DNA from: a virus
Virus record (IMG/VR): IMGVR_UViG_3300021185_003351
Span: 64,001-128,000 of that record
Length of the DNA stretch: 64,000 nucleotides
Direction: 5' to 3' (one strand)
Below are positions 22,730 to 55,114 of the stretch, piece after piece. The notes below the pieces were generated by a model that had not been told where the DNA came from, ran no database searches, and worked only from the letters and a program-made list of their open reading frames with translations. Each line of letters starts with the position of its first letter. Positions within the stretch are counted from its first letter, which is position 1. Made by a program: the position numbers and the translations under genes.

Positions 22730-23485
22730 ATGACAAAATTAACAGATCGTTATTCAAATGAAAATCTAATAAACTTAGCAACTCAAAATTACGACAAAAC
22801 AAAAAAAAGTACTTTACCAACTGAAGTAGTAACATTAGCTTCAGGAGGAAAGGTATATTCAAAAACAAATCCATTAAGTTCCGGCAAAATTGAAATGCGT
22901 TATATGACCGCTTATGACGAAGATATACTAACAAATGCATCATATATAAAAGAAGGAATTGTTTTAGATAAGCTGTTAGAAGCACTTATAATATCGGATA
23001 TCAATATAAATGATATAGCAACTGTCGACAAAGATGGATTAATTATACATGCAAGAATAGTTAGTTACGGAAAAATATATCCAGTACTGGTAACAGATCC
23101 AAAAACTAATAATAATTTAAAAAGAGAAGTTGATTTATCAAAACTAAATGCGTTTGATTTTAAACTAGAGCCTGATGAAAACGGTGAATTTGATTATCAA
23201 ATTAATGAAGATTTCAAACTAAAATTTCAATATACAAAAAAAGAAACAACAGGTACAGTATCAGAAGTATTAACAAAAAGTATTACTCAAATTAATAAAT
23301 CTAGAAAAGTAGAAGATATAGAACATTTTATAAAATATGAATTTTTAGCAAAAGATGCTAAAGAATTTAGATTATATATCTCAGAAAATGCGCCAGGAAT
23401 AAATTATGAATATGAATTTGAAGGTGAAGATGGAGGCACCTTCATTTCAAGGTTTCAACCTGGAACAGACCTTTTTTGGTTTTAA
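22730..23485 (+). CDS. Baseplate hub / tail assembly chaperone (T4 gp26-like)
   Basis: LPTEVVTLASGGKVY, IEMRYMTAYDEDILTN; located between tube and tape measure. Confidence 0.7.
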   Translation: MTKLTDRYSNENLINLATQNYDKTKKSTLPTEVVTLASGGKVYSKTNPLSSGKIEMRYMTAYDEDILTNASYIKEGIVLDKLLEALIISDININDIATVDKDGLIIHARIVSYGKIYPVLVTDPKTNNNLKREVDLSKLNAFDFKLEPDENGEFDYQINEDFKLKFQYTKKETTGTVSEVLTKSITQINKSRKVEDIEHFIKYEFLAKDAKEFRLYISENAPGINYEYEFEGEDGGTFISRFQPGTDLFWF

Positions 23486-41597: not shown

Positions 41598-41909
41598 ATG
41601 AGTTTTAATTTCTTAAATCCATCTGATGTAGATAGAAGCATGTTTTTTCGATGTGTAAAAATACTTTCAAAAAAAGATGGTATTGATCTTCATATATTAA
41701 ATGATGCGGTTATGAAAGAATATAACAGAACTATCAATGAATTTTTATCATATTTAATTTCAGTTGGAGAACAACTAGAAGAATATGAAAAATGTAGTGA
41801 GTTAATATTACAGCAAAAAAAATATAAAAAGTGGTTAACAGTTAATTTAGAAACAGTTAAATCGATTTCAAACTTATTAAAAGACTTAAAACATAAATAT
41901 GACAACTAA
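41598..41909 (+). CDS. Hypothetical protein with a UvrB/C-like helical motif
   Basis: LEEYEKCSEL segment. Confidence 0.45.
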   Translation: MSFNFLNPSDVDRSMFFRCVKILSKKDGIDLHILNDAVMKEYNRTINEFLSYLISVGEQLEEYEKCSELILQQKKYKKWLTVNLETVKSISNLLKDLKHKYDN

Positions 41910-42558
41910 AAAAAGTATTGAATTAGTAAAAGAAGGATTTGCAAATGGTGTAGCATCCGGAGGCCCATTAGATGATTATCAAAAAAATGATATGATTCAA
42001 AAAGCTGCAAAAGCGTATGGTGAGTTTTTAGATGCTTTAAAATGCGATTGGAGAAATGATCCTAATTCAAATGATACTCCTAGAAGAGTAGCAAAAGCAT
42101 ATGTAAATGATTTATGGGCTGGAAGATATAATGGAGCTCCTAATATTACAGCATTTCCATCTGATGGATATGATGGTATGGTATTTGAAGGTGGTATTCC
42201 ATTAACATCAATGTGTTCTCACCATCATCAAACTATTATGGGTAAAGTTCATGTAGCTTATATTCCAGGTAAAGACAGTAAAGTTATTGGATTATCAAAA
42301 TTAAATAGATTAGTAGAACATTTTGGTAGAAGAGGAGCAATACAAGAACAATTAACAGTTGCAATTCATAATTCAATTAATACTATTATTAATGATAATA
42401 ATGGTGTTGCTGTTATGATAGATGCAACTCATAATTGTGTTTCATGTAGAGGAGTTAAACATGGCGGAGCATCAATGAAAACAAGTAAGCTTACAGGCGC
42501 ATTTAAAAATGATCCTGCAACTAGAAATGAGTTTTATGAATTTATAAGAAGTTATTAA
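41899..42558 (+). CDS. folE: GTP cyclohydrolase I
   Basis: DTPRRVAKAY, SMCSHH, GLSKLNR, IQEQLT, HNCVSCRG. Confidence 0.95.
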   Translation: MTTKKSIELVKEGFANGVASGGPLDDYQKNDMIQKAAKAYGEFLDALKCDWRNDPNSNDTPRRVAKAYVNDLWAGRYNGAPNITAFPSDGYDGMVFEGGIPLTSMCSHHHQTIMGKVHVAYIPGKDSKVIGLSKLNRLVEHFGRRGAIQEQLTVAIHNSINTIINDNNGVAVMIDATHNCVSCRGVKHGGASMKTSKLTGAFKNDPATRNEFYEFIRSY

Positions 42559-42713
42559 TGAATCAACCAAATGCAAAAAAACATCAAACAATAAGTTTTA
42601 TTAAAAGTTGTATTAGAATAATAGGTTATTTTTTTATACCATTTAGTTTAATAACAGCAACAATAATATTAGTAATAAGTGAAATTATAGGAATAATAGA
42701 AGAATTAGTATAA
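42558..42713 (+). CDS. Small membrane protein, 51 aa, not in the ORF track
   Basis: MNQPNAKKHQTISFIKSCIRIIGYFFIPFSLITATIILVISEIIGIIEELV; exact TAATG coupling at both ends. Confidence 0.7.
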   Translation: MNQPNAKKHQTISFIKSCIRIIGYFFIPFSLITATIILVISEIIGIIEELV

Positions 42714-43180
42714 TGAGTAAATTTAAATCAACAAAAATATTTGACGGATTTAGTACAGTATTTCGTCAATTTGGAGCTATTGAAACACACTGCAGATTTT
42801 TACATGGATATGCAATTGAATTTAAAGTAACATTTGAAGGAGAATTAGATCACAGAAATTGGGTATGGGATTTCGGAGGAATGAAAAGGTCTAAAACAAA
42901 AATTGATGGAATGTCTGCAAAAGAATGGATGGATTATATGTTTGATCATACTACAATAATAGCAGAAGATGATCCATACCTAGAAACATTTTTAAAAATG
43001 CAAGATGATGGACTTATTCAATTAAGAGTTATGGAAGGACCGACTGGAGCAGAAAAGTTTGCAGAATACATATTTAATAAATTAAATGATTTTGTAAAAG
43101 AAGAAACTACAGATAGAGTAAAAATAGCTCGAGTAGAATTTTTTGAAAATAAAAAAAATACAGCTATATATGGAGAATAA
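42713..43180 (+). CDS. queD: 6-carboxy-5,6,7,8-tetrahydropterin synthase
   Basis: HCRFLHGY, WVWDFG, FDHTT, GAEKFAEY. Confidence 0.9.
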   Translation: MSKFKSTKIFDGFSTVFRQFGAIETHCRFLHGYAIEFKVTFEGELDHRNWVWDFGGMKRSKTKIDGMSAKEWMDYMFDHTTIIAEDDPYLETFLKMQDDGLIQLRVMEGPTGAEKFAEYIFNKLNDFVKEETTDRVKIARVEFFENKKNTAIYGE

Positions 43181-44033
43181 CCTAATATATGAATCTCCTA
43201 ATGGAGGCAAAACAGTATATCAACGAGAAATTGGATCTTCTAAAAGAAAGATACAAAGTAGATTAAAAAGAATAGAAGATTATAATAAAGTATTACCAGT
43301 TTTAGAAGTATATAGATGTGTACAATCAGAAGGTTCTAGATTTGGTAGACCAACTATTGCAGTTAGAACTACAGGCTGTACCCATAGATGTTATTTTGGA
43401 GAAGGCGGTTGGTGTGATTCTTGGTATACAAGCATTCACCCAGAAAAAGGTACATTTACTTTTAATGATATTATTAAGATATATGATGATAATCCCCATG
43501 TAAAGGAAATGATGTTAACAGGTGGTTCACCTACAATGCATCCTGCTTTAGTAAATGAAATAACACATTTTGCAAATGAAAGAAACATTTTGGTTACAAT
43601 TGAAACAGAAGGCTCTCACTTTCTTGAAACAGACTATCCTTTGGATCTTATTAGTCTTAGTCCTAAATTTAGTAACAGTGTGCCTGTACTTGGTGCTGTT
43701 ACACCTAACGGGGCTATCGCCGATGAGCGAATGATTAAAGTTCACAATAGACTTAGATTAAATAAGGAAGCTATTAGTAAAACAATTGCATATCATAAAG
43801 ATTATCATTTCAAGCCAGTATGGGATGGCACAAATGAAAATCTAGAAGAAATTGAGACATTTAGAGTTGAAATGGATATTCCAAAAAATAAAACATTTAT
43901 AATGCCAGCTGGTGATACTAGAGAAACATTAGTAAAAATGTATCCATTAGTATTTGAATTATGTGCTGAAAAAGGATATAATATGACAGGTAGAGACCAC
44001 ATTATAGCATATGACACAGAAAGAGGAGTGTAA
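43170..44033 (+). CDS. queE: 7-carboxy-7-deazaguanine synthase (radical SAM)
   Basis: VQSEG, RTTGCTHRCYFGEGGWCDS, LTGGSP, IETEG, SLSPK; likely start is the ATG at 43170. Confidence 0.9.
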   Translation: MENNLIYESPNGGKTVYQREIGSSKRKIQSRLKRIEDYNKVLPVLEVYRCVQSEGSRFGRPTIAVRTTGCTHRCYFGEGGWCDSWYTSIHPEKGTFTFNDIIKIYDDNPHVKEMMLTGGSPTMHPALVNEITHFANERNILVTIETEGSHFLETDYPLDLISLSPKFSNSVPVLGAVTPNGAIADERMIKVHNRLRLNKEAISKTIAYHKDYHFKPVWDGTNENLEEIETFRVEMDIPKNKTFIMPAGDTRETLVKMYPLVFELCAEKGYNMTGRDHIIAYDTERGV

Positions 44034-44174: not shown

Positions 44175-44471
44175 ATGAAAATGAAACCAATTGGAGATCA
44201 AGTTTTAATAAAAGAACAAGAAAAAGCTGATAAAACAGAAAGTGGAATAATATTAGTAGATGGTATAGACGGAGAATTTATATATGCAGATGTTATATCT
44301 GTAGGTAATGGATTATTTACTCAAACTGGAAATAGAATACCAATGTCAGTCTCTCCGGGAGATACTGTTTTAATACATAAAAATAATACTGGTGCACAAA
44401 AGAAAGTAAAAATTGATGGTACGGAATATATATTAGTAAGAGAAATGGAAATATCCATGGTTTCAAACTAA
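44175..44471 (+). CDS. groES: Co-chaperonin GroES
   Basis: MKPIGDQVLI, KTESGIIL, VISVGNG, PMSVSPGDTVL. Confidence 0.92.
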   Translation: MKMKPIGDQVLIKEQEKADKTESGIILVDGIDGEFIYADVISVGNGLFTQTGNRIPMSVSPGDTVLIHKNNTGAQKKVKIDGTEYILVREMEISMVSN

Positions 44472-45815: not shown

Positions 45816-46850
45816 ATGATTAGATATGGTTATGCATGTGTCAATCAGACACTAACAAGTAGACCCAAGAATGAAGGTGGTAGAGTTACTACTTCAAGGA
45901 CTGCACGTAAAGCTTCTTGGTATCCCGATAATTTACAGCTTATTTCAGATAAAGCATTAGACAATGCTAAAGATTTACTTACTTATCTGAAATGGAATGA
46001 CGACCATGGTATTACTTTATTTCGTGTAGGCTCCGAATTATTTCCATGGCATGATCAATATGAATTACATGATTTACCTGACTTTGAAGAAATTGCTTAT
46101 CACTTGCATGCAGCTGGAGAATTTGCTAGAGACAATGGACATAGACTAACTACTCATCCTGGACCGTTCCATGTATTAGGTTCTCCTAGGCAAGATGTTG
46201 TAGAAAAAAGTATTATTGGTCTAGAACGACACTCTGAAATGTTTGATATTATGGGTTATGAGCCGTCCTTTGAGAATAAGATTAATATACATGTTGCTGG
46301 CGCATATGGTGATCGTGAAGCTACTGCTAAGCGGTGGATCAAGACCTGGAGACGATTATCTGAGTCTTGTAGATCTAGATTAGTACTAGAGAATGATGAT
46401 AAGGCATCTATGTATAGTGTAAGGCATCTATACGAGCTTATACACCAAGAAATTGGTATTCCCATTACATTTGACTATTGGCATCATACCTTTTGTACAG
46501 GCGATTTATCTGAACGTGAGGCATTCTTTATGGCAAGATCTACTTGGGAGAAGTATGGTGTAACTCAATGTACTCATTATTCTGAGTCTAGACGAAACGA
46601 AAAAAAAGCTTTCTTGAATGAAGTATGTAGCAAGCATGGTATTTCGTGGGATGAAATTGATAGCTGGCCTACCTTTGCAAAGTTCAAGAAAGAATTCTCA
46701 AAGATAAAAGAGCCTGCCCATGCAGATTATATTGTGAATACTCCTAATACTTATAATGTTGATAATCTAGACATAGTAGTTGAAGCTAAGGCAAAAGAGT
46801 TAGCTATTTTACCGGTATTGGAAAAACAAAAAGAATTACTTATATTATAA
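45816..46850 (+). CDS. uvsE: UV damage endonuclease
   Basis: RYGYAC, FRVGSELFP, RLTTHPG, LVLENDD, FDYWHH, HYSES, HADY, VEAKAKE. Confidence 0.93.
   Translation: MIRYGYACVNQTLTSRPKNEGGRVTTSRTARKASWYPDNLQLISDKALDNAKDLLTYLKWNDDHGITLFRVGSELFPWHDQYELHDLPDFEEIAYHLHAAGEFARDNGHRLTTHPGPFHVLGSPRQDVVEKSIIGLERHSEMFDIMGYEPSFENKINIHVAGAYGDREATAKRWIKTWRRLSESCRSRLVLENDDKASMYSVRHLYELIHQEIGIPITFDYWHHTFCTGDLSEREAFFMARSTWEKYGVTQCTHYSESRRNEKKAFLNEVCSKHGISWDEIDSWPTFAKFKKEFSKIKEPAHADYIVNTPNTYNVDNLDIVVEAKAKELAILPVLEKQKELLIL
46818..46847 (+). promoter_or_regulatory. Putative early/middle promoter TTGGA-N17-TTATATTA
   Basis: Inside the uvsE 3' end, upstream of the small membrane gene and polB. Confidence 0.45.
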
Positions 46851-47080: not shown

Positions 47081-49600
47081 ATGTATCAAAATATAGCATA
47101 TCATAAGAAAACTGGCACAATGCATGTATGGGATGACGAATTAGGTCATAAAACTTTTAAGTTTACTCCATATGGATATATTCCAGATACAAATGGAGAA
47201 TATGTATCACTAAATGGCACTAAATTATCAAAGACTCCAGGCAATCATAGAGATAATTCAGATGCATATGAATCTGATTTAAATGAAGAGGTTAGAACAT
47301 TAATAGACTTATATTATGAGTCTGATTTAGTATCCACTGGTCATTCCGACTTCTTTTTTGATATTGAAACAGCAAAAGATGCAGATGGATATTCTACTCC
47401 AGAAGATGTTAGAACCGAAATAACATCAATAGCATATTATGACAAAGTTGGCAAAGATAGGAGAGTATTAGTATTGGATAAAGCAAACAGATTATCTGAT
47501 GACATTATATACGGTGATAACTATACTGTTGAGGTATTTGATAATGAAGCAAATTTGCTAATTAAATTTATTAACTATTTTTCAGAAATACAACCTACTG
47601 TTATAACTGGCTGGAATACTGATGGGTATGATATTCCATATCTTATTAATAGAATTAAAAAAGTATTAGGTCCTAAGTCTGCCAATAAATTATCTCCAGC
47701 TGGAATTGTAGAATGGAATAAACATCGTGAAAGATATAAAATATTTGGAGTTTCTAGTTTAGATTATATTAAATTATATAAAAACTTCACATATACAGAA
47801 CTTCCTAATTATAGATTAGATACAGTAGGTAAAACAGAGTTAGGTAAAGGTAAAATTGAATATGATGGTGACTTAGATGATTTATTTGTTTCAGACATTA
47901 ACAAGTTCATAGAATATAATATGACTGATGTTGATCTTGTATATGAGTTGGATGAAAAATTACAATTAATCAACTTAGCAAGAACTATATGCCATAAAGG
48001 ACATGTTCCATATGAAGATGTTTATTACGCATCTAAATATCTTGATGGTGCAGCTATTGTAGATTTAAAAAGAAACGGATTAGTAGCTCCAAATAAACAA
48101 TTTAGATTTGTTGAAGATGAAGAGCAGAATAAATTAGCCGGTGCATATGTTATGCCTCCTATACCAGGCCTATATAAATGGATATACGATTTAGATTTAA
48201 CATCTCTATATCCATCCATCATAATGAGCCTTAATATATCTCCAGAAACTAAAATAGGTGTTATTCCAAATTGGAAACAAGAATCATTGCTAAGTAAAGA
48301 GCCTGTTAGTGTAGTATGTAACGGCCAGACTATTCCAGATATTAAACAATGGCTAATTGATAATAAATTTACTGTTGCAAGTAATGGAGTAGTATATGAT
48401 ACTAGAAGTAAAGGATTCTTACCAAAGATATTAGAAAAATGGTTTGATGAACGTGTTAAATTTAAAAATGAACGAGATAATCATGAAGTAGGAAGTGATA
48501 AGTATAAATTTTATGATGCAATGCAATTAACACAAAAAGTATTGTTAAATTCATTTTATGGAGTATTAGGATTAAAGACATTTAGATTTCATGATTTAGA
48601 TAACGCAGGAGCTATCACAGCAACTGGCCAAAGTGTTATTAAATTTTCTGCAAAAGTTATTAATGGGTACTATAAGAAAGAAGTTGGTAAAGATTATTTT
48701 ATTAATGCTAATGGCAATAAAGCAGAATTTTCATTCTATACAGATACAGATTCAACATTTGTATCTAGTTTACCTTTAATAGAAAAAAGATATCCTGGAT
48801 TTGATGAATCTGATGAAAAGTTTATGATTGAAAAAACAAATGAAATAGCATCTGAAATACAATCGCATGTAAATAAAATGTATGATCAATATGCAGTTCA
48901 TTTTCATAATACATTTGATCATAGATGGCAAATTAAACAAGAATATGTTGCTAAGTCTGGTCTGTGGATAGCAAAAAAGAGATATGCTCAGTGGGTAATA
49001 TTTAAAGAAGGTAAACCTACGGATAAAATGGATATAAAAGGATTAGACGTAGTCAGATCATCTTTCCCTACTGAATTTAAAACTATAATGAAAGAAACAT
49101 TATGGTATATACTCAAAGAAAAGTCAAAGAATGCCACAACTAACTTAATAATGGATTTCAAAGACAAAATACAAGATTCTCCAATATTGGATGTCATGAA
49201 GAATACAGGTGTTAAAAATATCACAAAGTATACTAAAGGAAGAAAAACATTATCTGGATATCCATTAGGAACCCCAGTACATGTTAAATCTTCAATAAAT
49301 TACAATGATATGCTTAAACATTTAGGTATAAATAAAAATGCAAAAAACTTTGCAGATATACAAAATGGAGATAAGATTAAATGGGCGTATCTTAAAACAA
49401 ATCAAATGGGGTTTGATACCATTGCACTTAGAGGTTATGAAGATCCAACCCAAATAACAGAATTTGTTGAAAAATTTATTGATAGAAATAAAATATTTGA
49501 CAGAGAGATACGTGGAAAGTTAGATGACTTTTACGCATCAATGAATTGGGATAAACTTCCTGAAAATAATAATATGAATAAGTTCTTTTCATTTGGATAA
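47081..49600 (+). CDS. Family B DNA polymerase (T4 gp43-like)
   Basis: Exo FFDIET, TGWN, YNMTD; pol DLTSLYPS, KVLLNSFYG, YTDTDS, KKRY, KGLD. Confidence 0.97.
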   Translation: MYQNIAYHKKTGTMHVWDDELGHKTFKFTPYGYIPDTNGEYVSLNGTKLSKTPGNHRDNSDAYESDLNEEVRTLIDLYYESDLVSTGHSDFFFDIETAKDADGYSTPEDVRTEITSIAYYDKVGKDRRVLVLDKANRLSDDIIYGDNYTVEVFDNEANLLIKFINYFSEIQPTVITGWNTDGYDIPYLINRIKKVLGPKSANKLSPAGIVEWNKHRERYKIFGVSSLDYIKLYKNFTYTELPNYRLDTVGKTELGKGKIEYDGDLDDLFVSDINKFIEYNMTDVDLVYELDEKLQLINLARTICHKGHVPYEDVYYASKYLDGAAIVDLKRNGLVAPNKQFRFVEDEEQNKLAGAYVMPPIPGLYKWIYDLDLTSLYPSIIMSLNISPETKIGVIPNWKQESLLSKEPVSVVCNGQTIPDIKQWLIDNKFTVASNGVVYDTRSKGFLPKILEKWFDERVKFKNERDNHEVGSDKYKFYDAMQLTQKVLLNSFYGVLGLKTFRFHDLDNAGAITATGQSVIKFSAKVINGYYKKEVGKDYFINANGNKAEFSFYTDTDSTFVSSLPLIEKRYPGFDESDEKFMIEKTNEIASEIQSHVNKMYDQYAVHFHNTFDHRWQIKQEYVAKSGLWIAKKRYAQWVIFKEGKPTDKMDIKGLDVVRSSFPTEFKTIMKETLWYILKEKSKNATTNLIMDFKDKIQDSPILDVMKNTGVKNITKYTKGRKTLSGYPLGTPVHVKSSINYNDMLKHLGINKNAKNFADIQNGDKIKWAYLKTNQMGFDTIALRGYEDPTQITEFVEKFIDRNKIFDREIRGKLDDFYASMNWDKLPENNNMNKFFSFG

Positions 49601-49632: not shown

Positions 49633-50085
49633 ATGTACGGTAAGCATCAATGGAAAGGTAGAGAAGTAGAAGGTCGTTATTCAGATCTTATGACTTTCTT
49701 CGTAAGAGACTTAAATCATAATATTAAAAAAACTTATGGTTTAGAAGTAGAAAATTTTAATGAATATCCTCATTATTATTTTACAATTGAATTCATGAAA
49801 AAGTCTATGAAAGACGAAAAATATTTGGAAAGTATTAGACGTATATTAGATGAATCAAATTGTGCTGTAACTATAGAAGCTACTAAAGACACTTTAGACA
49901 CAATTAAACCAGACTTATTTAATAGATGTCATATTATATATAGAATTTCAGATCCTTATTTAGAAATGCTTAAAGACACTGACACATTATCAATCGATGC
50001 AGGTTGGTATAGAGTTCATCAAGTAACTAAATGTAATATGATGGAAATTCAACCAGATAACTATAAATTTGACGAAGAAATATGA
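49633..50085 (+). CDS. Hypothetical protein, first gene of the modification operon
   Basis: GREVEGRYSDLMTFFV; ATGA overlap with the dpdL-like gene. Confidence 0.6.
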   Translation: MYGKHQWKGREVEGRYSDLMTFFVRDLNHNIKKTYGLEVENFNEYPHYYFTIEFMKKSMKDEKYLESIRRILDESNCAVTIEATKDTLDTIKPDLFNRCHIIYRISDPYLEMLKDTDTLSIDAGWYRVHQVTKCNMMEIQPDNYKFDEEI

Positions 50086-50429
50086 AATATTCAGTAGTTG
50101 TATCATTTAGCGTAGAAGGATTTCATTGTTGGCCAGAAGCTAAAGAAATTTTCCCGGAAGTTGGATTTTTATCTGACAGACATAGGCATATGTTTGGATT
50201 CCGTTGCTATGCAAAAGTAACACATACAGATAGAGATGAAGAATTTATTTTAATGCAAAGAAAATTAAAAAAACAACTAAGAACTAATTTTGGTGGTAAT
50301 ATATTAGAATTTGGTAGAATGAGTTGTGAAGATATAGGCGCTTGGATTTTAGAACAAAATAATAATTTGTATAAAGTAGAAGTTTGGGAAGATTGGGAAA
50401 ACGGAGCAATAGTAGAATTAGGTTATTAA
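50082..50429 (+). CDS. dpdL: QueD-like T-fold protein, DpdL-type (predicted CDG decarboxylase)
   Basis: EGFHCWP, LSDRHRHMF (LxxxHRHxF), SCEDI, EVWEDWENGA. Confidence 0.75.
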   Translation: MKYSVVVSFSVEGFHCWPEAKEIFPEVGFLSDRHRHMFGFRCYAKVTHTDRDEEFILMQRKLKKQLRTNFGGNILEFGRMSCEDIGAWILEQNNNLYKVEVWEDWENGAIVELGY

Positions 50430-50430
50430 T

Positions 50431-51618
50431 ATGAAAAAAGTATTTTATTTTGGTTTAGAGCCTTTAAAGGCTAGATATACATATCAGTTATCTAAAGAAT
50501 GGATGCCGGCAACATTCCAGCCATATGTTGATGCAGGTAAAATTGAATATATTGATGTAGAAGGAGAATTTGATCCAGATCAACAAATTAAAATTGGAGC
50601 TGTATTAGATGCAGTAGGTAGAGGTAAGTTTGCTATGAGTCAATGTAGCAACTTTTTAGATATGATGAATCGAGATGAGGTTAGAGACGGAGATGTTATA
50701 TTTTTACAAGACTATTGGCATCCAGGTATCGGATCTATTTTGTATGCAGCTGATTTATATGGTATTAAATTGGAAATATATGCAATGTTACATGCTCAAA
50801 GTGTAGATGAATATGATTTTACATATCCTATGAGAACATGGATGCGAGGTTTTGAATTAGGTTTAGACAAAAGAATGACAGGTATATTTGTAGGATCTAG
50901 TATTCATAAAGAACAACTACGAGTAGCTGGATTTGAATCTCCAATACATGTTGTTTCATTACCAATTCATAAACAAGCTACATTAGACAAATTGCCTAGT
51001 TATAACTCCGGTGCAGAAAGAAAACCATTTGTTGTATACTCTAGCAGATTAGACAAAGAGAAAAATCCATTTTTCATGATGGAAGTAGCAACAGAATTTC
51101 TACAAGAATATACAGATTGGGAATGGCACATAACTACCTCAGGCAAAGAGTTTAGATCAATGTTACCAGGCGTTATTGATAAATTAAGATCATTAGCAAA
51201 ACAAGAGCCTAGATTTAAATTATTAGAAGGATTAACAAAAGAAGAATATTATACAGAGTTATCTACTTGCAGTATACAGTTTAATTCAGCTTTACAAGAT
51301 TATGTATCATGGACTGTAATTGAAGCTACTGCTTTTGGAGCAGATATTGTATATCCTAATTTTAGATCATTTCCAGAATTTATTGACAGTAAAAGAATGT
51401 ATAAACCATTTAATGTACAATCTGCATTAGATACATTTAGTGATGTAATGCTGTTTCCTAATAGACACAATGAAATAGTAGATATATCTGATCTAGGTAG
51501 ACAAATGGAAGGATACATTGTAGCAAATGGTATTAATCAAGAAATTAATGTTTGGCATGAAGCCGAATATTGTAAAATTTTATTAAATAAAAAAGAGGAA
51601 AAACATGAAAATAGATAA
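50431..51618 (+). CDS. GT-B fold glycosyltransferase inside the DNA modification operon
   Basis: LEPLKARYT, HAQSVD, SSRLDKEKNP, ALQDYVSWTVIEA, YPNFRSFPE. Confidence 0.8.
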   Translation: MKKVFYFGLEPLKARYTYQLSKEWMPATFQPYVDAGKIEYIDVEGEFDPDQQIKIGAVLDAVGRGKFAMSQCSNFLDMMNRDEVRDGDVIFLQDYWHPGIGSILYAADLYGIKLEIYAMLHAQSVDEYDFTYPMRTWMRGFELGLDKRMTGIFVGSSIHKEQLRVAGFESPIHVVSLPIHKQATLDKLPSYNSGAERKPFVVYSSRLDKEKNPFFMMEVATEFLQEYTDWEWHITTSGKEFRSMLPGVIDKLRSLAKQEPRFKLLEGLTKEEYYTELSTCSIQFNSALQDYVSWTVIEATAFGADIVYPNFRSFPEFIDSKRMYKPFNVQSALDTFSDVMLFPNRHNEIVDISDLGRQMEGYIVANGINQEINVWHEAEYCKILLNKKEEKHENR

Positions 51619-51784
51619 ACAAGGTTTAGAAGAAATTAGAAGTACTATTGAAACTCCCTTTAAAGCTTTAGCAGAACAGCTAAGTGATAAAGGATGTTTA
51701 GATAAACAATCTGCAGAAATAGTAACATTTATATTTTCGAAAATTGAAACTCTCGGAGATTCATCATGGGAAGTAATTGATTAA
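51605..51784 (+). CDS. Small hypothetical protein, 59 aa, not in the ORF track
   Basis: MKIDKQGLEEIRSTIETPFKALAEQLSDKGCLDKQSAEIVTFIFSKIETLGDSSWEVID; TAATG coupling to the dpdA-like gene. Confidence 0.6.
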   Translation: MKIDKQGLEEIRSTIETPFKALAEQLSDKGCLDKQSAEIVTFIFSKIETLGDSSWEVID

Positions 51785-53034
51785 TGGATAAAAATTTTAT
51801 ATATTATCCATCGTTATCAGCTGGTAGTATGGTGTCTGCATTCAAAAAGAATACAAAATTTGAGGATGGAACTACAACAAGATTCTTTTCAAAAGAGTAT
51901 CCTGCAGAATGGAGACATCCATATTTCTTAATCACTGCTGGACATCATTTCAAAAAGATGGATTTTCGTGATCAGTTAGGTTTAGATGATGAGGTATTAG
52001 TATTCGGAGATTCAGGCGGATTCCAAATAGCAACAGGAGCTTTAAAGTGGGACGGTACTATTCGTGAAAGAATATTTGAATGGTTAGAACATAATTCAGA
52101 TGTAGCAGCAAATTTAGATATTCCACCAAGAGCAAAATATGAAAATAGATTTGCCGAATCCATGGATATTAGTTTTGATAATTTTAAATATTTTGAATCT
52201 AAACAAACTGGAAAAACTGATTTCTTAAATGTTATACAAGGAACATATACAGAAGAATATGAAGAATGGTATCATAAGTTTAAGGATTTTGCATTTAATG
52301 GTTGGTGTATCGGAGGCCCTAAGAAATTAGTAGATTTCATGTATGTTATTGCTTTAATGTTAAAGGAACGAGAATTTGAAAAGAATCATGTAAAGTATAT
52401 ACATTTACTAGGAATATCAAAAATATCAGACTTTTTTATATTAGCAACATTACAAAAGTTAATTAACAAATTAACTGATAACAGAGTATTATTCTCAACA
52501 GATTCTAGTTCACCAGGACAATATCCAGTATTTGGAACATATTTACATTCTGGGAATTATAAAACTCAAACATTTACAGAATTATACTTTCCAAAAAATA
52601 ATGAATATAGAAGAAAATCTCATGCTAATAGATCTAATAAAACAGTAGCCATTGACACTACTAAACACGTGCCATGTAGTTTAGGCTGCCCTGCTTGTAA
52701 TGATTTTACATATGATTATTTAGGAGGCCAGACAGCAACTGGGTTAGATAGATATAGCCAAGAAGGTATGCCTAGAATGGTTATACATAATACTCATTTA
52801 TATGTCGACATTGCAAAAGATGTAAGCAAACTAGTAAATAATCATGTTGAATTGTTAGAAACAGCAATTCCAAAACCATTATACGATGTTATATTATCAT
52901 TACACGATATGTTTGCCGATCCAGACAATGCAATGAGAGTATATGCGACTTATAAAAAAACATACAAAAAGTTTGGTGGTGATAGTATATCAACTACTGA
53001 CGCAAATCAATTCAATAAATTCTTTAAATTTTAA
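51784..53034 (+). CDS. dpdA: TGT-fold transglycosylase, DpdA-like (7-deazaguanine insertion)
   Basis: GDSGGFQ, NLDIPP, NVIQG, WCIGG, IHLLG, STDSSSP, Zn site CSLGCPAC...HN; context of dpdL, folE, queD and queE. Confidence 0.8.
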   Translation: MDKNFIYYPSLSAGSMVSAFKKNTKFEDGTTTRFFSKEYPAEWRHPYFLITAGHHFKKMDFRDQLGLDDEVLVFGDSGGFQIATGALKWDGTIRERIFEWLEHNSDVAANLDIPPRAKYENRFAESMDISFDNFKYFESKQTGKTDFLNVIQGTYTEEYEEWYHKFKDFAFNGWCIGGPKKLVDFMYVIALMLKEREFEKNHVKYIHLLGISKISDFFILATLQKLINKLTDNRVLFSTDSSSPGQYPVFGTYLHSGNYKTQTFTELYFPKNNEYRRKSHANRSNKTVAIDTTKHVPCSLGCPACNDFTYDYLGGQTATGLDRYSQEGMPRMVIHNTHLYVDIAKDVSKLVNNHVELLETAIPKPLYDVILSLHDMFADPDNAMRVYATYKKTYKKFGGDSISTTDANQFNKFFKF

Positions 53035-53046
53035 AAATAAAAGCAA

Positions 53047-53754
53047 ATGGAAAAAAGTAAATTACAATCGTTTATTAACAGATATTATCTAGCAGGAAAT
53101 TGCGAAGCTGTAACTGTTAAAGCAAATGGTCAGTCTGTTAATTGTGAATTAATAGATGTTGATCAAACAGTAGTCGGAAAAATAAAATGGAAAACAGATC
53201 CATTTATGTCTGGCGAATTAGGTATTAATCATACAGGTGGATTAACAAAAATGTTATCCGCAGTAGGTGAAAATATCGATATCAATGTACAAGAGTCTGC
53301 AGGTAAGAATTATGCTATGAAGATCAAAGAAGGAAGTACCACAATGACTTTCATGTTAGCTGATACTTCTGTTATACCAGCAGTTCCTGCAATTAACGCA
53401 GAACCAGAATATAATGTTACAATTGATATTGATGAATTATTTGTTAATAAATTTATAAAAGCAAAAAATGCATTACCAGACGCAAAGAATTTTGCAGTAC
53501 AAGTACAAAACGGTAAAATAAAGTTTATTATTAATTATACAACTATTAATTCAGACAATGTTACATTTGAAATAGATGGTGGTACAGAAGCAATGGAACC
53601 AATTTGTTTCTCTGCAGATAAACTAAAAGAAGTATTAACTGCAAATAAAGGAGATAAAGGTACAATGCATTTTTCATCTAAAGGATTAGCTAGAATAGAT
53701 TTTACAGGTCCTGACTTTGATTCAAATTATTGGTTAGTTCAATTACAAAATTAA
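53047..53754 (+). CDS. DNA polymerase sliding clamp (gp45/PCNA-like)
   Basis: 235 aa two-domain beta/alpha pattern; next to the clamp loader gene. Confidence 0.75.
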   Translation: MEKSKLQSFINRYYLAGNCEAVTVKANGQSVNCELIDVDQTVVGKIKWKTDPFMSGELGINHTGGLTKMLSAVGENIDINVQESAGKNYAMKIKEGSTTMTFMLADTSVIPAVPAINAEPEYNVTIDIDELFVNKFIKAKNALPDAKNFAVQVQNGKIKFIINYTTINSDNVTFEIDGGTEAMEPICFSADKLKEVLTANKGDKGTMHFSSKGLARIDFTGPDFDSNYWLVQLQN

Positions 53755-54187: not shown

Positions 54188-55114
54188 ATGTTTGGAGTAA
54201 CAGAAAATACACTTTGGGTAGAAGCATTTAGACCTGATACATTAGATGGATATATTGGTAATGAGCATATCATTGATAAAGTTAAAATATTCATTGAAAA
54301 TGGAGATGTTCCACATTTGCTATTTTATGGAGGAGCAGGCACAGGTAAGACTACATTAGCAAAAATTATTGCAAATAATGTAGATGCAGATTTAATGTAC
54401 ATTAATGCATCTGATGAAAACTCAGTAGACGCAGTAAGAGATAAAATAAAAAGATATGCATCTACAGTAGGATTTAAAAGATGGAAAATTGTTATATTAG
54501 ATGAAGCTGATTATCTTACCCCAAATGCACAAGCAGCATTGAGAAATATAATGGAAACATATAGTAAAACTACTAGATTTATTCTAACATGTAACTATGT
54601 TGAAAAAATTATAGATCCAATTCAAAGTAGATGTCAAACATTTGGTATTGCACCTCCTAGCAAAAAAGATGTAGCTCAACGATTAGTTACAGTATTAGAA
54701 GAAAAACAAGTTGAATATGACATTAAAGATGTTGCAGCTATTATTAATTCTTCATATCCTGATATACGTAGAGCAATTAATGCAGCACAAAGCCATGTAG
54801 TTAAAGGTAAGTTAACATTAGACAAAAATAGCGTTGTACAAGCTAATTATATGACTAAATTACTAGAGTTATTAAAGAATGTAACAGATAAAAAAGAAAC
54901 ATTTAAAAGTATCCGACAAATTATAGCAGATAGCAAAGTTAAAGATTTTACACCGCTATATACTTATTTGTATGAAAATTTAGATGAATTTGCAACTGGA
55001 TCTATTGCTTCTTGTATATTAATTATAGCAGAATCTCAGTATACTGATTCTCATGTAGTAGATAAAGAAATAAATATAATGGCAATGTTTGTTAAATTAA
55101 TGAATGAATTATGA
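54188..55114 (+). CDS. Clamp loader AAA+ subunit (gp44/RFC-like)
   Basis: LWVEAFRP, GGAGTGKTT, INASDE, ILDEAD, FILTCNY, IQSRC. Confidence 0.95.
   Translation: MFGVTENTLWVEAFRPDTLDGYIGNEHIIDKVKIFIENGDVPHLLFYGGAGTGKTTLAKIIANNVDADLMYINASDENSVDAVRDKIKRYASTVGFKRWKIVILDEADYLTPNAQAALRNIMETYSKTTRFILTCNYVEKIIDPIQSRCQTFGIAPPSKKDVAQRLVTVLEEKQVEYDIKDVAAIINSSYPDIRRAINAAQSHVVKGKLTLDKNSVVQANYMTKLLELLKNVTDKKETFKSIRQIIADSKVKDFTPLYTYLYENLDEFATGSIASCILIIAESQYTDSHVVDKEINIMAMFVKLMNEL

Follow-up and report, generated by a model that had tools for sequence, protein, structure and literature searches.

The stretch of DNA analysed here (the window; 64,000 nucleotides of IMG/VR virus record IMGVR_UViG_3300021185_003351) comprises bases 64001–128000 of a 172,973-bp phage genome with a GC content of 30%, in which about 222 of 230 genes lie on the same strand. 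It encodes a T4-type family B DNA polymerase (PolB), a 416-amino-acid (aa) protein with the fold of tRNA-guanine transglycosylase (TGT) and, starting 12 nucleotides past the stop codon of the latter, a sliding clamp (Table 1). The last residues of PolB are NNMNKFFSFG (NKFFSFG being encoded at 49577–49597), and the TGT-fold enzyme ends in ANQFNKFFKF (53002–53031, with a TAA stop at 53032–53034). Downstream of the clamp gene lie a dUTPase gene and then an RFC-like clamp loader; a cognate clamp of the PCNA/gp45 fold and a clamp loader are thereby both encoded in the window. The original prediction, made from the letters alone, had singled out the PolB and TGT-fold tails and the clamp gene next to the enzyme gene, and the coordinates, the translations and the identity of the clamp are borne out.

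We propose, with a probability of about 75%, that the TGT-fold enzyme is held by the phage clamp through its polymerase-type peptide and exchanges guanine (G) in DNA. The enzyme most likely hooks the phage clamp and acts on DNA as replication proceeds, because its tail is the same peptide as the end of PolB. Docking on the clamp is supported by five independent lines: conservation of the tail, its co-variation with the tail of PolB, its absence from phages in which no PolB or clamp was detected, a third protein with such a tail, and a model of the complex.

Table 1. Features of the window that bear on the TGT-fold enzyme, its tail and its gene neighbourhood (positions in the window).
Feature	Position	Strand	Basis
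GTP cyclohydrolase I (FolE)	41899–42558	+	phrog_2197 1.5e-61; NCBIfam FolE 1e-46 to 1e-48, under equivalog cut-offs
QueD-like PTPS	42713–43180	+	PF01242 2.4e-16, above cut-off; TIGR03367 QueD 2e-7
QueE-like radical SAM enzyme	43143–44033	+	several NCBIfam QueE 1e-14 to 1e-5, under cut-offs; Radical_SAM 2e-7
T4-type family B DNA polymerase (PolB), 839 aa	47081–49600	+	phrog_262 1.1e-177, aligned through C-terminal end; Pfam DNA_pol_B
orf150, conserved companion	49633–50085	+	no family match; homologue with same ..PDNYKFD.. ending in L140 cassette
DpdL-like T-fold protein (orf115; proposed 7-carboxy-7-deazaguanine (CDG) decarboxylase)	50082–50429	+	38% identity to phiST DpdL, E 2e-12
GT-B glycosyltransferase-like protein	50431–51618	+	weak Glyco_trans_1_4, Glycos_transf_1 matches
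TGT-fold DNA transglycosylase candidate (DpdA-type), 416 aa	51784–53034	+	fold, motifs, context
Flexible linker, residues 401–409	52984–53010	+	AlphaFold2 pLDDT <50 at 401–406; not conserved among representatives
Clamp-binding-type peptide FNKFFKF, F410–F416	53011–53031	+	conserved in ~100 orthologous loci; co-varies with PolB tail
Sliding clamp (gp45/PCNA fold)	53047–53754	+	phrog_223 1.2e-8; AlphaFold2 pLDDT 94; Foldseek
RFC/gp44-like clamp loader ATPase	54188–55114	+	phrog_168 9.5e-87; AAA, DNA_pol3_delta2 domains

A candidate DNA transglycosylase

The Pfam TGT match of the enzyme is weak (E = 1.2 × 10−5, 25 bits, under the cut-off of 26.3), a single-sequence search of the PDB found nothing and a PADLOC scan gave no bacterial DpdA match. 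A profile built from 66 relatives matches the archaeosine TGT 1iq8 (ArcTGT; E = 2.2 × 10−5), and in the profile alignment to TGT and ArcTGT the DSGGFQ motif and the Cys cluster plus HN Zn site coincide. The AlphaFold2 (AF2) model (pLDDT 92) has the (β/α)8-barrel fold of TGT, and its best Foldseek matches are bacterial, archaeal and human TGT (probability 1.0, TM-score 0.5–0.6). A Zn site of the form C..C..C..H is invariant in 66 sequences, as are D76-S-G-G, Q81, D112, H207 and D240; from its position in the motif, D240 would be the counterpart of the TGT nucleophile. Fold, motifs and pathway context agree with the label ‘DpdA-like’ that the enzyme had been given at the outset. We regard the protein as a TGT-superfamily enzyme that is a candidate for base exchange in DNA. 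It shares its type with the enzyme of Acidovorax phage ACP17, in which the orthologue is gp123, the only TGT-like gene there, called dpdA in an earlier study (PMC10516641). We infer that DNA is the substrate, and likewise the identity of the inserted base.

Phage DpdA proteins have been divided into DpdA1 (9g, CAjan), DpdA2 (nt-1), DpdA3 (phiST, CP220) and DpdA4 (PMC6884629, PMC10516641). Membership of DpdA3 was considered and rejected: phiST gp042 gave an hhalign probability of 2.7% (E = 0.017), with no detectable kinship beyond the fold. The phiST DpdA3 is 259 aa long, has LDNGAGD where GDSGGFQ is expected and ends in ..LRELLKK, without the tail. Searches with tblastn between this protein and the enzyme, in either direction, gave no link, and the DpdA3 of Campylobacter phage CP220 was located neither with the enzyme-family profile nor with the phiST protein. 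The DpdA2 of nt-1 is a distant relative only (E = 1 × 10−4).

Conservation and co-variation of the tail

The enzyme is predicted to consist of a folded TGT barrel and helical C-terminal domain (residues 1–400), a short flexible linker and then the peptide F410-N-K-F413-F414-K-F416; after the linker, the AF2 model has a short helix at residues 407–413. KFF occurs in the last 8 residues of 3 proteins of this phage against 0.30 expected (12 KFF in the 56,028-residue proteome), and the only two copies of NKFFxF in the proteome are those at the ends of PolB and of the enzyme; the match therefore exceeds chance despite the low GC content. Conservation centres on F-x-x-[FY]-F (F410, F413 and F414), a PIP-like h-x-x-a-a pattern that A407-N-Q-F410-N-K-F413-F414 fits. 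The full PIP box, Q-x-x-[LIVM]-x-x-[FY]-[FY], is absent: in place of the Q at position 1 there is A, V, I or K.

The tail in some 100 loci at 70–100% identity reads F-[NSAGE]-x-[FY]-F-K-[FTSIL] or, in one clade at 71% identity, SFNQFFGQKTN; the PolB tail xKFFSFG(K) is nearly invariant at 63–100% identity. In a wider family sample of 114 representatives with at most 50% mutual identity, for which 2,181 open reading frames of the same loci served as background, FF lies in the last 8 residues of 45.6% of the proteins compared with 0.6% of the background (Fisher P = 6 × 10−62), and an aromatic doublet in 78.9% compared with 7.0%, whereas windows just upstream in the same proteins contain FF in 0–4%. 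The motif is retained down to 30% identity and the linker sequence is not. Conservation of the tail had been named beforehand as a check, and the tail is indeed kept across orthologues and distant representatives, on a variable linker.

The tails of the enzyme and of PolB from the same genome or contig change together (Table 2). Permutation of 55 non-redundant pairs gave 16.55 ± 0.51 against an observed value of 19.85, and none of 10,000 shuffles was as high; when each class of PolB tail was represented by a single pair (n = 15), the observed value was 15.7 against 11.1 ± 1.3, and 5 of 10,000 shuffles were as high. In long-type enzymes, which are relatives of about 500 aa from jumbo phages, the motif lies some 30 residues short of the C terminus, ahead of an acidic end, and here too it resembles the tail of their own PolB. 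The co-variation that the original prediction had asked about thus takes the form of matched change across many lineages, with the support of permutation. The pairing is present in ACP17, in PA5oct and in over 10 metagenomic lineages, which confirms that it is widespread; since ACP17 and PA5oct are cultivated phages, the idea is testable at the bench.

Table 2. Paired C-terminal tails of the TGT-fold enzyme and PolB.
Source	Enzyme tail	PolB tail
Window	NKFFKF	NKFFSFG
L140	SDNDFF	ADNDFF
L180	KKINNLFKF	KKINSLFKF
L195	VKMDALFD	IKMDGLFW
L219	MNEFF	IDEFF
L147	NKFFKF	NKFFKF
ACP17	TLDELFE	SLDDLFE
PA5oct (long-type)	SFNSLFD	HFDSLFGW
L203 (long-type)	GFNSLFE	NTFNLLFE
L210 (long-type)	TFNNLFE	TFNKLFDFE

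The association extends to gene order. Of the 77 short-type loci with a clamp, 65 have the clamp gene directly after the enzyme gene; in long-type loci it is upstream of the enzyme gene, no further than about 0.2 kb in most and no further than about 1.3 kb in all 12 listed. No PolB or clamp was detected in phages Peetri and PhiXhv-12, and their TGT-like proteins have K-rich tails from which the motif is absent.

These two tails are long and lysine-rich (..KRRKQSDGERSKAKK in Peetri, L143:3857–5227; ..KRPGKQKVKKKKK in PhiXhv-12, L145:3611–5317) and may be an alternative, direct hold on DNA. In PA5oct, gp170 (L142; NC_071039 221902–222648), which is annotated as ‘structural protein (ESI-MS/MS)’, matches the sliding-clamp profile (E = 7 × 10−47) and is encoded just upstream of the TGT-like gene; given this match and this place, it is most likely the clamp. 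Inspection by eye of clamp pocket residues against tail class gave no clear rule.

An endonuclease VII-like protein (phrog_945, 158 aa), encoded outside the window (G000:C1:29109–29585; L081:11110–11586), ends in VVKFFV. Most of 80 orthologous IMG/VR loci retain its [KN]FF end, which comes after a variable EGE.P linker. The protein is a possible third client of the clamp, and the three tails would fit a common clamp tag on several DNA enzymes of this phage clade.

Proposed docking on the clamp and competing explanations

The model of the clamp has Foldseek matches at probability 1.0 to PCNA, T4 gp45 (3u61_F, 6drt_A, 1czd_A) and RB69 gp45 (1b77_A). We modelled the clamp trimer together with enzyme residues 376–416, a check that had been proposed with the original prediction, and the aromatic residues of the peptide were placed in the canonical interdomain pocket. 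The interface score (ipSAE) was 0.63 (0.62, 0.64 and 0.63 in the three runs) compared with 0.00 for the best control; of 80 solved complexes, 58 attain this mark, as do 2 of 110 mismatched pairs. The runs have at least 56% of their contacts in common, and the pLDDT of the partner is at least 48. Residues F410, F413, F414 and F416 contact clamp residues 39–43, 112–120 (the interdomain connector), 212–214 and 229–234 (the C-terminal strand), which supports, at the level of a model, docking in the same pocket that PIP boxes and the RB69/T4 peptides occupy.

In the mechanism that we propose, the tail copies the end of the phage’s own family B polymerase, and its aromatics would enter a hydrophobic pocket of the trimeric gp45-like clamp, by analogy with T4/RB69 gp43; this pocket is flanked by the interdomain connector loop on one side and the C-terminal strand on the other. 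Since the clamp encircles new DNA and offers three pockets, it would keep the enzyme on phage DNA that is replicating or has just replicated, beside the polymerase or in turn with it; the enzyme may travel with the polymerase or sit on clamps that remain once the fork has passed. There, the tethered enzyme would replace G by the deazapurine that the FolE–QueD–QueE–DpdL pathway supplies. We infer both physical binding to the clamp and its timing relative to the fork. The earlier suggestion that the enzyme rides the clamp is supported in its central part, the docking, and is too narrow in defining the motif as NKFFxF.

Several observations weigh against this proposal. The shared NKFFxF at the extreme C terminus is true of PolB and the enzyme of this phage, but many orthologues at 93–96% identity have T, S, I or L where the enzyme has its last F, and the motif is not terminal in the clade at 71% identity nor in the long-type enzymes; the exact motif is therefore too narrow and not the conserved unit. 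The residues F, K and N are favoured in a genome with 30% GC. Some pairs of tails match poorly (L223, NEFFE and DDLFC; L217; Phosso, VEGLF and FNDLFTF), and the DpdA2 of nt-1 is without a PolB-like tail, although the PolB of nt-1 matches that of the window. In the complex, the pLDDT of the peptide itself is only about 50, and the score may stem from resemblance to solved clamp–peptide complexes (1b8h-type, 6drt). On the side of function, no DpdA of this type has yet been reconstituted as a DNA transglycosylase, and dpdA plus dpdL of ACP17 produced no 2'-deoxy-7-deazaguanine (dDG) in Escherichia coli (PMC10516641). For T4 α-glucosyltransferase, the conclusion was that clamp binding is not what chiefly sets the level of modification (PMC13216743), and docking therefore need not be functionally decisive.

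Vibrio phage nt-1 (L278:1303–2712, L279:1123–3681) has a DpdA2 that ends in ..AEYPDFKS and a PolB that ends in ..TLESFFG. The insertion rate of DpdA2 is low (PMC10516641), and it is possible that lack of the tail and low modification are linked, as a correlation only.

Three other explanations have to be weighed. The likeness of the tails could be convergent or compositional, a neutral appendage of an AT-rich genome, as the abundance of F (4.6% of residues), K (7.4%) and N (7.1%) and the variable last residue among close relatives would allow. We consider this very improbable, given the tenfold excess of KFF ends, the restriction of NKFFxF to the two ends, a motif that outlasts its linker down to 30% identity and co-variation with PolB that is also seen in GC-richer phages such as ACP17 (LDELFE). 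Co-variation, for its part, shows a shared constraint only and names no partner; the tail could bind some other common protein (a gp32-like single-stranded DNA-binding protein, a helicase or primase, or a chaperone) or be a tag for degradation or localisation, and the endonuclease VII-like protein is also tailed, with clamp binding not known for T4 gp49. However, the PolB tail is at the position of the clamp-binding peptide of T4/RB69 gp43, and its ACP17 form, SLDDLFE, comes close to SLDFLFG of T4. The model uses the canonical pocket and scores 0.00 when an unrelated protein replaces the clamp, the enzyme gene adjoins the clamp gene in both subfamilies and the motif is absent where no clamp was detected, all of which make another partner unlikely.

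The remaining alternative accepts the binding of the tail to the clamp but takes the enzyme for a glycosylase-like repair or surveillance factor, or for a tRNA enzyme scaffolded on the replisome, the deazapurine entering through the nucleotide pool and the polymerase. The missing reconstitution of this type of DpdA (PMC10516641) is compatible with it, as are the dUTPase gene that follows the clamp gene and the pool-level incorporation once proposed for Campylobacter phages (PMC6884629). It sits poorly with the invariance of the TGT base-exchange residues and Zn site, with a gene that is accompanied by FolE, QueD, QueE and DpdL here and by QueC and QueF in other loci, and with a cassette in which no deazapurine kinase or phosphoribosyltransferase was recognised; we give it little credence.

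Beyond base exchange by an enzyme tethered to the clamp lies a larger and more doubtful proposal, which we put forward only tentatively. The clamp could be an obligatory processivity factor for base exchange, enabling replacement of all or nearly all G during replication, which would explain why dpdA and dpdL of the ACP17 type fail in E. coli, where the phage clamp and loader are absent. A ‘toolbelt’ sharing one tag (the polymerase, the transglycosylase, the nuclease resembling endonuclease VII and, in certain phages, also the glycosyltransferase of the cassette) could then build hypermodification into the replisome.

Pathway context and related systems

Genes for FolE, a QueD-like and a QueE-like protein lie 8–10 kb upstream of the enzyme gene, and a search of the genome for QueC found none. 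The sequence LSDRHRHMF of orf115 fits the DpdL signature LxxxHRHxF, and the set FolE–QueD–QueE–DpdL without QueC has been tied to dDG, which replaces 100% of G in Cellulophaga phage phiST (PMC10516641). The predicted product is therefore 7-deazaguanine or a derivative. In its gene set the phage resembles phiST-type phages; the enzyme itself is not close to phiST DpdA3. More generally, as with other phage DpdAs (PMC6884629, PMC10516641), a TGT-superfamily enzyme is encoded with genes for 7-deazaguanine synthesis.

Homologues of the GT-B-like protein stand beside the enzyme and DpdL in ACP17 (gp124) and L140; the protein in the window is without an aromatic tail. Glycosylation of the deazapurine and another step are both possibilities for this glycosyltransferase. 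The module of orf150, DpdL, the GT-B-like protein and the enzyme (window 49633–51784) recurs in ACP17 (L086, gp122–gp125) and at L140:4477–6410. Between the deazaguanine precursor genes and PolB, the window also encodes a GroES-like co-chaperonin (44175–44471; NCBIfam, 4e-20) and a UvdE UV-damage endonuclease (45816–46850; Pfam, 3.7e-55). Elsewhere, relatives of the enzyme adjoin QueC, QueF, PTPS and FolE. At L139:479–3571, a distant family member with the tail ..SINDLF is clustered with QueC, QueF and PTPS, and the QueC gene has a LAGLIDADG insertion. The cluster suggests a preQ1-type pathway, with an intein or homing-endonuclease insertion in QueC.

Described clients of gp45 provide a close parallel. 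The T4 gp43 end EKASLDFLFG and the T4 ligase loop LDFLF bind gp45, of which gp33 is also a client (PMC6212786). As in these T4/RB69 clients, the peptide is aromatic or hydrophobic, is attached by a flexible segment and is common to several proteins of one phage; docking of the known clients in the interdomain pocket of a trimeric PCNA-fold clamp has its counterpart here in a model. The ACP17 tails, (S/T)LD(D/E)LFE, are near-copies of the T4 motif, whereas the clade of the present phage has F/M-N-K-F-F in place of LDFLF. Unlike the described clients, the one proposed here is a TGT-fold base-exchange enzyme.

Binding of T4 α-glucosyltransferase to gp45 was reportedly described by Sommer et al. 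in 2004. It has since been confirmed, and the two proteins co-purify (PMC13216743). This is a phage DNA-modifying enzyme associated with the clamp, as the TGT-fold enzyme would be according to our model, and coupling to replication has been proposed for T4. The α-glucosyltransferase differs in having a GT-B fold and in transferring sugar to 5-hydroxymethylcytosine that is already in DNA, and we found no polymerase-like terminal peptide described for it. In eukaryotes, the PIP boxes of DNMT1, UNG2 and MSH6 tether DNA-modifying and repair enzymes to PCNA. The logic is the same, an h-x-x-a-a peptide that brings the enzyme to the clamp and so allows new DNA to be marked as it is replicated, but lineage and chemistry are unrelated and the present peptide does not have the canonical Q. 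That a DNA-modifying enzyme can be tethered to a clamp is thus already known (T4 α-glucosyltransferase, DNMT1–PCNA); a clamp motif in DpdA was not found described, and our literature searches for a link between DpdA or deazaguanine and the clamp, gp45 or the replisome returned none.

DNA that contains 7-deazaguanine makes phage genomes resistant to many restriction enzymes. A clamp hook would be a concrete mechanism by which a transglycosylase is recruited to newly replicated DNA by the phage’s own clamp, and would add a new class of enzyme to the clients of viral sliding clamps. The tail is sequence-level evidence that argues for insertion on DNA and not via the nucleotide pool. The finding bears on how some phages replace all G and on the failures in heterologous hosts (PMC10516641), for which co-expression of clamp and clamp loader is a suggested remedy.

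Among other small proteins, two gp33-/gp55-like candidates with tails (..SKYFDIK and ..NKIFPYKK) matched only PHROGs of unknown function and were dropped. Gp26-like baseplate hub proteins also have aromatic tails, GTDLFWF in the window (22730–23485) and GLDDFFV in ACP17 (NC_041997 88633–89394), the latter resembling the PolB/DpdA tail LD(D/E)LFE of ACP17.

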